From Escherichia coli (GTDB lineage: Bacteria > Pseudomonadota > Gammaproteobacteria > Enterobacterales > Enterobacteriaceae), in NCBI RefSeq assembly GCF_003991155.1, contig NZ_CP031293.1: 64,000 bases of DNA; one strand, given 5' to 3'. Below, piece by piece: positions 61,559 to 64,000 of the stretch. The translations under genes and the position numbers were made by a program. The stretch's first letter is position 1, and each line of letters opens with the position of its first letter. Below the pieces are notes generated by a model. That model made no database searches, was not told the DNA's origin, and worked only from the letters and a program-made list of their open reading frames with translations.

Positions 61559-62392
61559 TTATTGCGGCCAAAGCTGCTGGTGTAAAGACTCAACGACATC
61601 AGCAATACGCGGACCCATTCCCAGAATCAGGTTTTGATCAACGGTGATAATGCGCTGGTTCTTCCAGGCGGCGGTGTGGGTAATTCCGGCAATAGAACGT
61701 AGCCGATTAATATCGCCATCGACCATTTGTGAGGTGACGACAATCACTTCAGGGTTAGCCGCAATCAGCGATTCCGCGCTGTAGCTTTTGTACTGCTGGT
61801 GGGTAGCGACGTTTTCTGCTCCGGCAAGCGAAAGAATGGCGTCCGCGACGCTGCCTTTACCGGCAACCTGTGGCGCACTTCCGCCTGCGGAGAGAATAAA
61901 CATGGCTTTAACCGGGGCTTTTTTGGCCGCCACGTTTTGCTGTACTCGCTCCAGGCGTTGGTTGATCTGTGTCACCAGCGCCTCGCCTTGTTCAGGAACC
62001 TGTAGCGTTTTTGCCAGTTGGCGAATGTTGGCGTACATCTGCTCAAGGGTGGCAGGCACACGCGGCAGGGTGACGACGTTGACTTTCTGCGCTCGTAGTT
62101 GGTCGAGCACAATTTGTGGCCCGGCATCCTGCCAGGTAATTACGCTATCCGGGCGAAGTGACAAAATGCCTTCGCTGCTGAGTTGTTTCCAGTAACCAAT
62201 ATGCGGCAGTCTGGCGGTTTCTGGTGGATAAGATGTCGTTTCATCGACACCAACCACGCGTTTGCCAGCGCCCATCGCGTAGATTAGCTCCGTCAGCGAT
62301 CCTCCTGCGACCACGATACGTTCGGCAGCCGTTACGCTAAAAGTCCAGCTAAGAGCCAGTAATGCCGTAAACAATTTTTTTCGTTTTACCAT
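61559..62392 (-). CDS. chuT: Periplasmic haemin-binding protein ChuT (ShuT)
   Basis: Start placed at MVKRKKLFTALLALSWTFSVTAA (Sec-type signal peptide); an upstream ATG at 62473 is an alternative; the ORF-track start at 62551 lies upstream of the Fur box and is unlikely. Confidence 0.75.
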   Translation of the reverse strand: MVKRKKLFTALLALSWTFSVTAAERIVVAGGSLTELIYAMGAGKRVVGVDETTSYPPETARLPHIGYWKQLSSEGILSLRPDSVITWQDAGPQIVLDQLRAQKVNVVTLPRVPATLEQMYANIRQLAKTLQVPEQGEALVTQINQRLERVQQNVAAKKAPVKAMFILSAGGSAPQVAGKGSVADAILSLAGAENVATHQQYKSYSAESLIAANPEVIVVTSQMVDGDINRLRSIAGITHTAAWKNQRIITVDQNLILGMGPRIADVVESLHQQLWPQ

Positions 62393-62497
62393 GGTCTTCG
62401 CGGCAGAGACCACGGCTGAAATACATAACGTTAGTGGGGAAAAAAGAAACGGCCTGGTGATGATCCTTGGCATAATGTGAGAACTCTTATCAAATTG

Positions 62498-62519
62498 AGA
62501 ATGATCATGATTATCATTT
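62498..62519. promoter_or_regulatory. Fur box in the chuT promoter region
   Basis: GAGAATGATCATGATTATCATT resembles the Fur consensus GATAATGATAATCATTATC. Confidence 0.6.
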
Positions 62520-62847
62520 GAGTTATATATGAAATACAACCGTCGATTCAATACGCACGGCGTTACAAGCGTATTTATTTTTGATTTTTATCAAGATGCT
62601 TCGTCAGCTAATGTTCTTGTTACCGATTAAATTTCAGCGCGGGAAAAAGCTGAGAACCCGGAGATATCGCGGCTTGCAGAGCAAAGAGAAGAGAAAATTA
62701 TCACTGTTAACGACAACGTTTTGTGATGAGGTTGTGGGGGGATAGTCATAAACACAGGATGGTTTTCTGGATGCTGGATAGATTTCATAACCCCCTGTTT
62801 ATTGTGTTAATGGCGGTTAAAAAAAGCTTGATCATAAAAAATTGATC

Positions 62848-62866
62848 GATAATAATTCTCATTATC
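62848..62866. promoter_or_regulatory. Fur box in the chuA promoter region
   Basis: GATAATAATTCTCATTATC matches the Fur consensus closely. Confidence 0.65.
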
Positions 62867-63124: not shown

Positions 63125-63156
63125 AGCATTTTTTATTTTCCTCATGGAGAATCGCT
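63125..63156 (+). promoter_or_regulatory. Candidate FourU-type RNA thermometer around the chuA Shine-Dalgarno
   Basis: U-runs (TTTTTTATTTTCC) directly 5' of CATGGAGA (the SD) could pair with it. A FourU thermometer in the shuA/chuA leader is established knowledge; the fold was not computed. Confidence 0.35.
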
Positions 63157-64000
63157 ATGTCACGTCCGCAATTTACCTCGTTGCGTTTGAGTTTGTTGGC
63201 TTTGGCTGTTTCTGCCACCTTGCCAACATTTGCTTTTGCTACTGAAACCATGACCGTTACGGCAACCGGGAATGCACGTAGTTCCTTCGAAGCGCCTATG
63301 ATGGTCAGCGTTATCGACACTTCCGCTCCTGAAAATCAAACGGCTACTTCAGCCACCGATCTGCTGCGTCATGTTCCTGGAATTACTCTTGATGGTACCG
63401 GACGAACCAACGGTCAGGATGTAAATATGCGTGGCTATGATCATCGCGGCGTGCTGGTTCTTGTCGATGGTGTTCGCCAGGGAACGGATACCGGACACCT
63501 GAATGGCACTTTTCTCGATCCGGCGCTGATCAAGCGTGTTGAGATTGTTCGCGGACCTTCAGCATTACTGTATGGCAGTGGCGCGCTGGGTGGAGTGATC
63601 TCCTACGATACGGTCGATGCAAAAGATTTATTGCAGGAAGGACAACGCAGTGGTTTTCGTGTCTTTGGTACTGGCGGCACGGGGGACCATAGCCTGGGAT
63701 TAGGCGCGAGCGCGTTTGGGCGAACTGAAAATCTGGATGGTATTGTGGCCTGGTCCAGTCGCGATCGGGGTGATTTACGCCAGAGCAATGGTGAAACCGC
63801 GCCGAATGACGAGTCCATTAATAACATGCTGGCGAAAGGGACCTGGCAAATTGATTCAGCCCAGTCTCTGAGCGGTTTAGTGCGTTACTACAACAACGAC
63901 GCGCGTGAACCAAAAAATCCGCAGACTGTTGAGGCTTCTGATAGCAGCAACCCGATGGTTGATCGTTCAACAATTCAACGCGATGCGCAGCTTTCTTATA
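63157..64000 (+). CDS. chuA: TonB-dependent outer-membrane haem receptor ChuA (ShuA), 5' portion; continues beyond the window
   Basis: Open frame from the ATG at 63157 (MSRPQFTSLRLSLLALAVSATLPTFAFA, TonB box ETMTVTA) to the window edge without a stop; SD GGAG 7 nt upstream. Confidence 0.9.
   Translation, partial: MSRPQFTSLRLSLLALAVSATLPTFAFATETMTVTATGNARSSFEAPMMVSVIDTSAPENQTATSATDLLRHVPGITLDGTGRTNGQDVNMRGYDHRGVLVLVDGVRQGTDTGHLNGTFLDPALIKRVEIVRGPSALLYGSGALGGVISYDTVDAKDLLQEGQRSGFRVFGTGGTGDHSLGLGASAFGRTENLDGIVAWSSRDRGDLRQSNGETAPNDESINNMLAKGTWQIDSAQSLSGLVRYYNNDAREPKNPQTVEASDSSNPMVDRSTIQRDAQLSY

Follow-up and report, generated by a model that had tools for sequence, protein, structure and literature searches.

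The chuT gene of Escherichia coli raises the question of which of three in-frame codons begins its translation. In the 64 000-nucleotide stretch of DNA analysed here (contig NZ_CP031293.1 of assembly GCF_003991155.1; hereafter the window), chuT is encoded on the minus strand and ends with a stop codon at 61559; chuW is found downstream, and chuA, whose ATG is at 63157, is divergent. Over the 2.5 kb that were compared, the window shows 100% identity to E. coli 2016C-3878. The longest open reading frame, as given by the list of reading frames and the sequence, runs from 62551 to 61559, begins with TTG and encodes 330 residues. A preliminary description of this DNA had pointed to three in-frame starts, all of which are present in the list and in the sequence.

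TTG at 62551, minus strand: first candidate start, giving 330 residues
ATG at 62473 (62471..62473), minus strand: second candidate start, giving 304 residues (MPRIITRPF...)
ATG at 62392 (62390..62392), minus strand: third candidate start and codon 28 of the 304-residue form, giving 277 residues, with MVKRKKLFTALLALSWTFSVTAA preceding ERIVV

The locus is found in 2236 of 5426 complete E. coli genomes. An exact-protein look-up in public databases found that the 330-, 304- and 277-residue proteins of the window allele have all been deposited (on 16, at least 1000 and 22 contigs, respectively), and the ambiguity over the chuT start in annotations is real. The 304-residue form was the RefSeq chuT in each of the 14 genome records opened. 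Some GenBank records, apparently including the GenBank version of this genome, carry the 330-residue form with TTG; the RefSeq version begins at ATG 62473.

Much of what bears on this question comes from the orthologue shuT of Shigella dysenteriae, for which the regulatory architecture has already been published. There, 5′-RACE showed 42 transcribed nucleotides to precede the start codon, RT-PCR succeeded with primer F2 but not with F3 or F4, and the promoter insert of the pT-lacZ construct consisted of 26 nt upstream of the promoter plus the 36-nt promoter (Wei, Kouse & Murphy 2017, PMC5458455). The shuT Fur box occupies +1 to +19, its first base being +1; it bound Fur in EMSA, a 5-nt truncation abolished iron control, and qRT-PCR in a fur deletion strain showed the iron response to be fur-dependent (PMC5458455). 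The oligonucleotides of that study could be placed on the window with zero or one mismatch, which gives the following layout.

62577..62516, minus strand: pT-lacZ promoter-only insert, a mapped shuT oligonucleotide
62551..62531, minus strand: primer F3, which begins exactly at the TTG and gave no cDNA product
62546..62551, minus strand: -35 hexamer TTGAAT of the chuT promoter, from the published promoter insert mapped onto the window and from reading of the sequence
62522..62527, minus strand: -10 hexamer TATAAC, read from the sequence, with a spacing that fits the mapped +1
62515, minus strand: transcription start (+1), transferred from S. dysenteriae shuT
62515..62462, minus strand: T7 template described as full UTR plus five codons, placed with one mismatch
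62497..62515, minus strand: Fur box GATAATCATGATCATTCTC, +1 to +19 of the transcript, with three mismatches to the consensus
62501..62479, minus strand: primer F2, a mapped shuT oligonucleotide

Since 62516 is the last base of the promoter insert and 62515 the first of the T7 template, +1 corresponds to 62515 and the published start codon to the ATG at 62473. The arrangement TTGAAT, 18 nt, TATAAC, 6 nt, G(+1) can be read directly from the sequence, and the -35 hexamer opens with the TTG at 62551, which lies 36 nt before the mapped +1. Compared with S. dysenteriae shuT, a single nucleotide differs across promoter, Fur box and UTR, and it lies in the UTR; the region 62600-62480 is nearly invariant across Escherichia. 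It should be noted that a consensus promoter scan missed the chuT promoter because its -10 hexamer ends in C and not T, so that the scan gives no evidence either way.

Searching the 64-kb window with the 19-bp Fur consensus (GATAATGATAATCATTATC) and allowing up to three mismatches gave two sites, at 62497..62515 and, on the chuA side, at 62848..62866, as against no match in 100 shuffles; the chuT-side box is well beyond chance. A near-consensus 19-bp site is therefore seen to overlap the transcription start. In the preliminary description the same box had been drawn a few bases longer, at 62498..62519, and about 25 nt upstream of the second start; the distance from the end of the box to ATG 62473 is 23 nt. 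The conclusion drawn there, that almost no room is left before 62473 for a UTR and a Shine-Dalgarno (SD) sequence, does not hold, because it took the Fur box to lie upstream of the transcript, of which it forms the first 19 nt. With +1 at the first base of the box, the ATG is preceded by a 42-nt UTR that holds an SD sequence. Iron- and Fur-dependent transcription of this chuT would carry over from the identical site in S. dysenteriae.

The 42-nt UTR is also expected to act at the level of translation.

62471..62515, minus strand: 42-nt 5′ UTR plus AUG, a predicted hsp17-like single-hairpin RNA thermometer, identical to the shuT UTR at 41 of 42 positions
62484..62488, minus strand: SD-like AAGAG at UTR positions 28-32, read from the sequence, 10 nt before the AUG

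The UTR in the window has C instead of U at +39 and otherwise matches the tested shuT UTR, with the same predicted fold: the SD region (A29-U33) is paired to A14-U18, and positions 2-3 are paired to the AUG (minimum free energy -3.5 kcal/mol). In structural terms it is a short UTR with one hairpin, in which the SD is predicted to be paired with an upstream anti-SD. The hairpin is no more stable than that of shuffled sequence (z = +1.09), as expected for a thermometer, and the fold alone is consequently no evidence. The computed energy needed to open positions -15 to +15 around 62473 falls from 7.3 kcal/mol at 25 °C to 5.5 kcal/mol at 37 °C, which is only suggestive. Experimentally, the shuT UTR and ATG placed before a gfp gene without its own start (pXG10) led to production of Gfp, which responded to iron, Fur and temperature and was higher at 37 °C than at 25 °C at an unchanged mRNA level (PMC5458455). 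A U15A/U16C mutant of the UTR was made to destabilise the hairpin, RNase T1 probing found the two Gs of AAGAG accessible at 37 °C, AAGAG is the ribosome-binding site in the published model, and the authors class the element as hsp17-like; the start codon itself was taken from annotation (PMC5458455).

The ATG at 62473 is conserved in all Escherichia lineages examined. We consider that it is probably the principal chuT start, giving a precursor of 304 residues. Transcription start, Fur dependence, thermometer and initiation in reporter fusions have been demonstrated for S. dysenteriae shuT and would be expected to transfer to the window allele, as would the use of 62473 as the start in its native mRNA. 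The reading is weakened by an SD that forms a poor duplex with the 3′ end of 16S rRNA (-2.4 kcal/mol) and lies 10 nt from the AUG, and by an atypical leader in the 304-residue form; moreover, all the direct experiments behind 62473 used S. dysenteriae rather than the window allele, which bears the third ATG.

Comparison with other genera indicates how the gene may have come to depend on this start. Close orthologues from Citrobacter, Kluyvera, Raoultella, Klebsiella and related genera are 77-85% identical, have 274-279 residues and start with MKKL, and the outgroup orthologues start 2 nt after the stop of a gene for a TonB-dependent receptor. On these alignments the MKKL start is judged to be the ancestral start of chuT.

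62380..62381, minus strand: junction of a 9-nt in-frame deletion by which the ancestral start was removed, placed by alignment (other Escherichia have AGTTCCATG)

The 9-nt gap is seen when the window and O157 are aligned with E69, SCPM and Escherichia albertii, and the outgroups have ATG AAA AAA (MKK) in its place. The ancestral ATG survives in E. albertii and in E69 and SCPM-O-B-8794, divergent genomes that carry the label E. coli; in all three the promoter, Fur box, UTR and in-frame ATG upstream of it are present as well. Its deletion is most readily explained if translation already began at the upstream ATG. On the alignments, E. coli proper lost the ancestral chuT start through the 9-nt deletion, and it probably now depends on the upstream ATG. 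Two further observations concern this region. In E. albertii and the two divergent Escherichia genomes there are two tandem ATGs at the upstream start. In Citrobacter, Kluyvera and their relatives, hmuT directly follows the TonB-dependent receptor gene (stop, 2 nt, ATG), and hence is without a promoter of its own. The divergent arrangement of chuA and chuT, each with its own Fur box and thermometer, is a rearrangement specific to the genus Escherichia.

The third candidate, ATG 62392, lies three codons upstream of the position of the lost ancestral start. The preliminary description had preferred it, on the grounds that it gives a canonical Sec signal peptide; by heuristics the N-terminus is indeed canonical, and it begins within three codons of the starts of orthologues in other genera. 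As a general start for chuT or shuT the preference cannot be sustained, since about 45% of chu-positive E. coli have GCG, GCA or ACG at this codon. The alleles at codon 28 are as follows.

ATG: window type (796 genomes, exact 41-mer), 536 type and KFu014 type, together about 55% of 2233 genomes
ACG: O145:H28 type
GCG: 526 genomes
GCA: 310 genomes, including O157:H7, plus a 60-genome subtype

The 60-genome subtype has GCA without the CGT change and was recovered by the GCG and GCA searches alike at 95-99% identity. The 141-mer of the ATG type is shared by 1093 genomes at 99% identity or more, and carriers of this allele include the present strain and B2 lineages such as ST131, 536 and ATCC 25922. 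Codon 28 is ACG in E69, ACA in SCPM and GCG in E. albertii, and the third ATG is best read as a derived, single-step change (ACG to ATG) and not as a conserved start. Genomes with Ala or Thr at this codon, approximately 45% of the 2233 chu-positive ones, accordingly have no further ATG after 62473 and before the mature N-terminus. This matters for the experimental literature: an exact-sequence look-up found a leader with Ala-28 joined to the exact mature sequence of crystallised ShuT (2R7A) on 374 contigs, and none in which that mature sequence followed a leader with Met-28 or Thr-28, so that the strains used for all the ShuT biochemistry and regulation likewise lack such an ATG. Two other codons were considered as starts in shuT-type alleles and rejected, namely GTG at codon 21 and TTG at codon 34. 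Both lack an SD; moreover, the GTG is not conserved across the genus, and the TTG gives a leader without a positive n-region.

The protein encoded from 62473 has an unusual leader, the parts of which are as follows.

62393..62470, minus strand: extension, codons 2-27, comprising N1 (MPRIITR), H1 (PFLFSPLTLCISAVVSAA) and the start of N2; absent outside Escherichia
62324..62380, minus strand: ancestral signal-peptide core (KKLFTALLALSWTFSVTAA) with a predicted signal-peptidase site between TAA and ER; aligns with the signal peptides of orthologues
61559..62323, minus strand: mature ChuT, the periplasmic haem-binding protein, plus stop codon, identified from ShuT 2R7A and Pfam matches

The leader of the 304-residue form has 50 residues: MPRIITR and PFLFSPLTLCISAVVSAA are followed by KTMVKRKK (N2), LFTALLALSWTFSV (H2) and TAA (C). 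Orthologues outside Escherichia have, in every case, leaders of 20-23 residues. The uncharged stretch of the extension, residues 8-25, has a mean Kyte-Doolittle hydropathy of 1.75, and under the positive-inside rule a leader with KTMVKRKK between its two hydrophobic segments is open to mis-insertion. By heuristics for Sec signal peptides cut by SPase I, which look for K/R in the n-region, an uncharged h-region of about 7-17 residues and small residues at -3 and -1, the 277-residue N-terminus fits perfectly, and the 304-residue leader is the same module placed after a second n-h module. Across Escherichia, pN/pS is 0.4-0.9 in the extension, 0.06-0.2 in the signal-peptide core (deep comparisons) and 0.04-0.13 in the mature part, a pattern that points to purifying selection on the second module and almost neutral evolution of the first. 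The low ratio in the second module indicates that export still relies on the ancestral signal, with the extension as a tolerated addition. The extension frame is open in five Escherichia lineages; the probability of finding no stop was about 0.3 in shuffled sequences and frame +2 is open too, so that the open frame is uninformative and sequence evolution alone is no proof that the extension is translated.

Other kinds of leader were sought in this region. A lipobox follows the consensus [LVI][ASTVI][GAS]C; the leader has none, its LTLC having Leu at position -1, and the SCPM lineage carries Gly in place of the Cys. No twin-arginine (Tat) motif is present in the extension, and a Pfam scan of the 330-residue translation matched only Peripla_BP_2 (2e-34) and no ESPR domain. 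The mature protein aligns with ShuT 2R7A over residues 75-330 of the 330-residue translation (E = 2.4e-161), with three mismatches over 256 residues; the crystallised protein begins AAERIVV. Both its membership of Peripla_BP_2 and the tyrosine in its HIGYW motif mark it as a haem-binding periplasmic protein. That tyrosine, the haem ligand, is residue 94 when numbered from 62473, which is the numbering of the ShuT structural literature and speaks for this start. Literature searches for N-terminal sequencing of ShuT, for the Tyr94 numbering and for the transcription start of E. coli chuT returned nothing usable. In two genomes PGAP calls chuT/shuT frameshifted: O157 strain Al Ain has a 1-nt deletion in the C-run of the extension, at codons 12-13, and MS20657 has a short duplication in the signal peptide. 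Both changes could be homopolymer sequencing errors; the Al Ain deletion, if real, would amount to a natural experiment on the need for translation of the extension.

The remaining readings differ from ours in the use that they make of the other two candidate codons. For ATG 62392 the local RNA structure has to be considered.

62388..62416, minus strand: allele-specific predicted hairpin that pairs the third ATG and the bases upstream of it (minimum free energy -15.8 kcal/mol, z = -3.07)

It may be supposed that strains with the ATG allele initiate at both 62473 and 62392, in which case B2-type strains would also make a canonical 277-residue precursor, the synthesis of which would partly evade the thermometer. 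We regard this as unlikely, although it has some attractions: the third ATG yields a textbook n-h-c signal peptide within three codons of the ancestral start, the codons after it are A-rich, the allele is at least tolerated, being carried by about 55% of chu-positive genomes, and ribosomes elongating from 62473 would transiently melt the hairpin. Against it, the SD complementarity of 62392 (-2.2 kcal/mol) lies about 15 nt upstream, out of usable range. SD strength alone (-2.4 kcal/mol for 62473, -2.2 kcal/mol for 62392) cannot tell the two ATGs apart; only their position and local structure can. Opening positions -15 to +15 at 37 °C is computed to cost 15.2 kcal/mol at 62392 as compared with 5.5 kcal/mol at 62473, approximately 10 more, and only one of 200 shuffles folds as well as the hairpin. 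The O157 allele folds differently at this site (-9.7 kcal/mol, z = -0.25). The window-type hairpin requires both ATG at codon 28 and GTC, in place of GCC, at codon 22; the structure of the 536-type allele, which has GCC and ATG, is weaker (opening energy 11.4 versus 15.2 kcal/mol), and the codon 22 change of the window allele thus strengthens the hairpin instead of weakening it. A promoter scan of 62392-62515 found no internal promoter-like site. A related proposal is that the ACG to ATG change recreated a start beside the deleted one in about half of chu-positive E. coli, with a second precursor of 277 residues as the outcome and the 304-residue two-part leader as a separate case; this we consider distinctly unlikely.

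The preference expressed in the preliminary description goes further, making ATG 62392 the sole start in this allele, 62473-62393 an untranslated leader and the 304-residue annotation over-extended. A length of 277 residues is the norm of the family (VcHutB has 277 residues with a signal peptide of 23, and the orthologues have 274-279), the extension is weakly constrained, and the BtuF family model aligns only from about residue 59 of the 330-residue form. Nevertheless, the shuT UTR with the equivalent of ATG 62473 initiates translation in vivo in fusions, shuT-type alleles without an ATG at codon 28 encode a working, crystallised protein, and ribosomes would in any case use an in-frame AUG that lies upstream, has an SD and is followed by no stop before 62392. 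Given also the poor context of 62392 in the window allele, with no usable SD and a position inside a stable hairpin, we find exclusive use of this codon very unlikely. The opposite extreme, initiation at TTG 62551 as in some GenBank records, has in its favour that it gives the longest reading frame and was the choice of gene callers on 16 contigs. It is, however, hardly credible: the codon belongs to the -35 hexamer upstream of the mapped +1, primer F3, which begins exactly there, gave no cDNA product, no SD is found (+0.6 kcal/mol), the upstream frame of E69 contains a stop, and the additional residues (MNRRLYFIYNSNDNHDHSQFDKSSHI) are no more than a translation of promoter, Fur box and UTR sequence. 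The earlier suspicion that the longer forms are over-extended is therefore borne out for the 330-residue form, whose TTG is untranscribed, and is contradicted for the 304-residue form by transcript mapping, reporter fusions and the comparison of alleles.

Taking 62473 as the principal start, expression of chuT may be envisaged as follows. A sigma-70 promoter, TTGAAT (62551-62546), 18 nt, TATAAC (62527-62522), would start the transcript at 62515. When iron is plentiful, Fur bound to the first 19 transcribed nucleotides (62515-62497) would block RNA polymerase. In the 42-nt leader a weak hairpin would pair AAGAG (62488-62484) and the AUG, and would melt at 37 °C. Translation would then proceed mainly from ATG 62473 to give the 304-residue precursor with its two-part leader of 50 residues, the ancestral Sec signal-peptide part of which would be cut before ERIVV. 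On this scheme the TTG at 62551 would be promoter DNA and no codon, and ATG 62392 a lineage-specific ACG to ATG substitution contributing little or nothing as an independent start.

It is useful to compare this arrangement with known systems. The S. dysenteriae shuT locus (PMC5458455) is that of a sister lineage, with the same -35, -10, Fur box, start and first codons, and a UTR one base apart; it differs from the window allele, which has ATG for GCA or GCG at codon 28 and GTC for GCC at codon 22, and these changes account for the extra strong hairpin. The mature domain is that of the haem-binding proteins HmuT, PhuT, HutB and BhuT (cluster A-II, Peripla_BP_2), with E values of 1e-45 to 1e-31 for PhuT, HmuT, BhuT and HutB, and the ancestral signal peptide, KK-LF..TAA before ER, is also shared. 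Members of this family have leaders of 20-23 residues with an MKKL start, whereas in Escherichia chuT is served by a promoter of its own and by an in-frame ATG further upstream. The ESPR extended signal peptides of autotransporters have the layout N1-H1-N2-H2-C. The ChuT leader shares this five-part layout but shows no sequence similarity to them, its passenger is a small binding protein and its extension is poorly conserved. The UTR resembles Synechocystis hsp17-type thermometers in that the whole of a short UTR is one weak, AU/GU-rich hairpin pairing the SD; it differs in that the chuT element is absent from Rfam, the only match in the window being the FourU element of chuA/shuA at 63128-63159.

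The chuA side of the intergenic region has its own set of elements.

62848..62866, plus strand: chuA-side Fur box, with two mismatches to the consensus
62828..62856, plus strand: promoter-like TTGATC, 17 nt, AATAAT, overlapped by the Fur box
63128..63159, plus strand: shuA_thermo FourU thermometer (Rfam RF02597, 60.1 bits), just before the chuA ATG at 63157

The chuA UTR of EHEC is reported to be 291 nt long (PMC9002310); a UTR of this length is assumed here for the window, which would place the chuA +1 near 62866, about 350 nt from that of chuT. An E. coli-type shuT of approximately 98% identity was also found on metagenome-assembled contigs labelled Collinsella sp. and Bacteroides heparinolyticus, which are almost certainly mis-binned.

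The analysis confirms that the iron-plus-temperature control module of shuT is present, essentially unchanged, in E. coli chuT. Its practical value lies in annotation: the 304-residue RefSeq form is the one that agrees with experiment, and records with 330 residues translate promoter and Fur-box DNA and should be trimmed; the mature ChuT is the same whichever ATG serves as start. The new points are small and evolutionary, namely the deletion of a start codon, a polymorphic third ATG and an unusually long leader. Were ATG 62392 used, synthesis of the 277-residue ChuT would bypass the thermometer in the 5′ UTR, making temperature control and export allele-specific. The 304-residue precursor, if it is indeed made, would be a case of a small periplasmic protein with a two-part leader of 50 residues born of the loss of a start codon.
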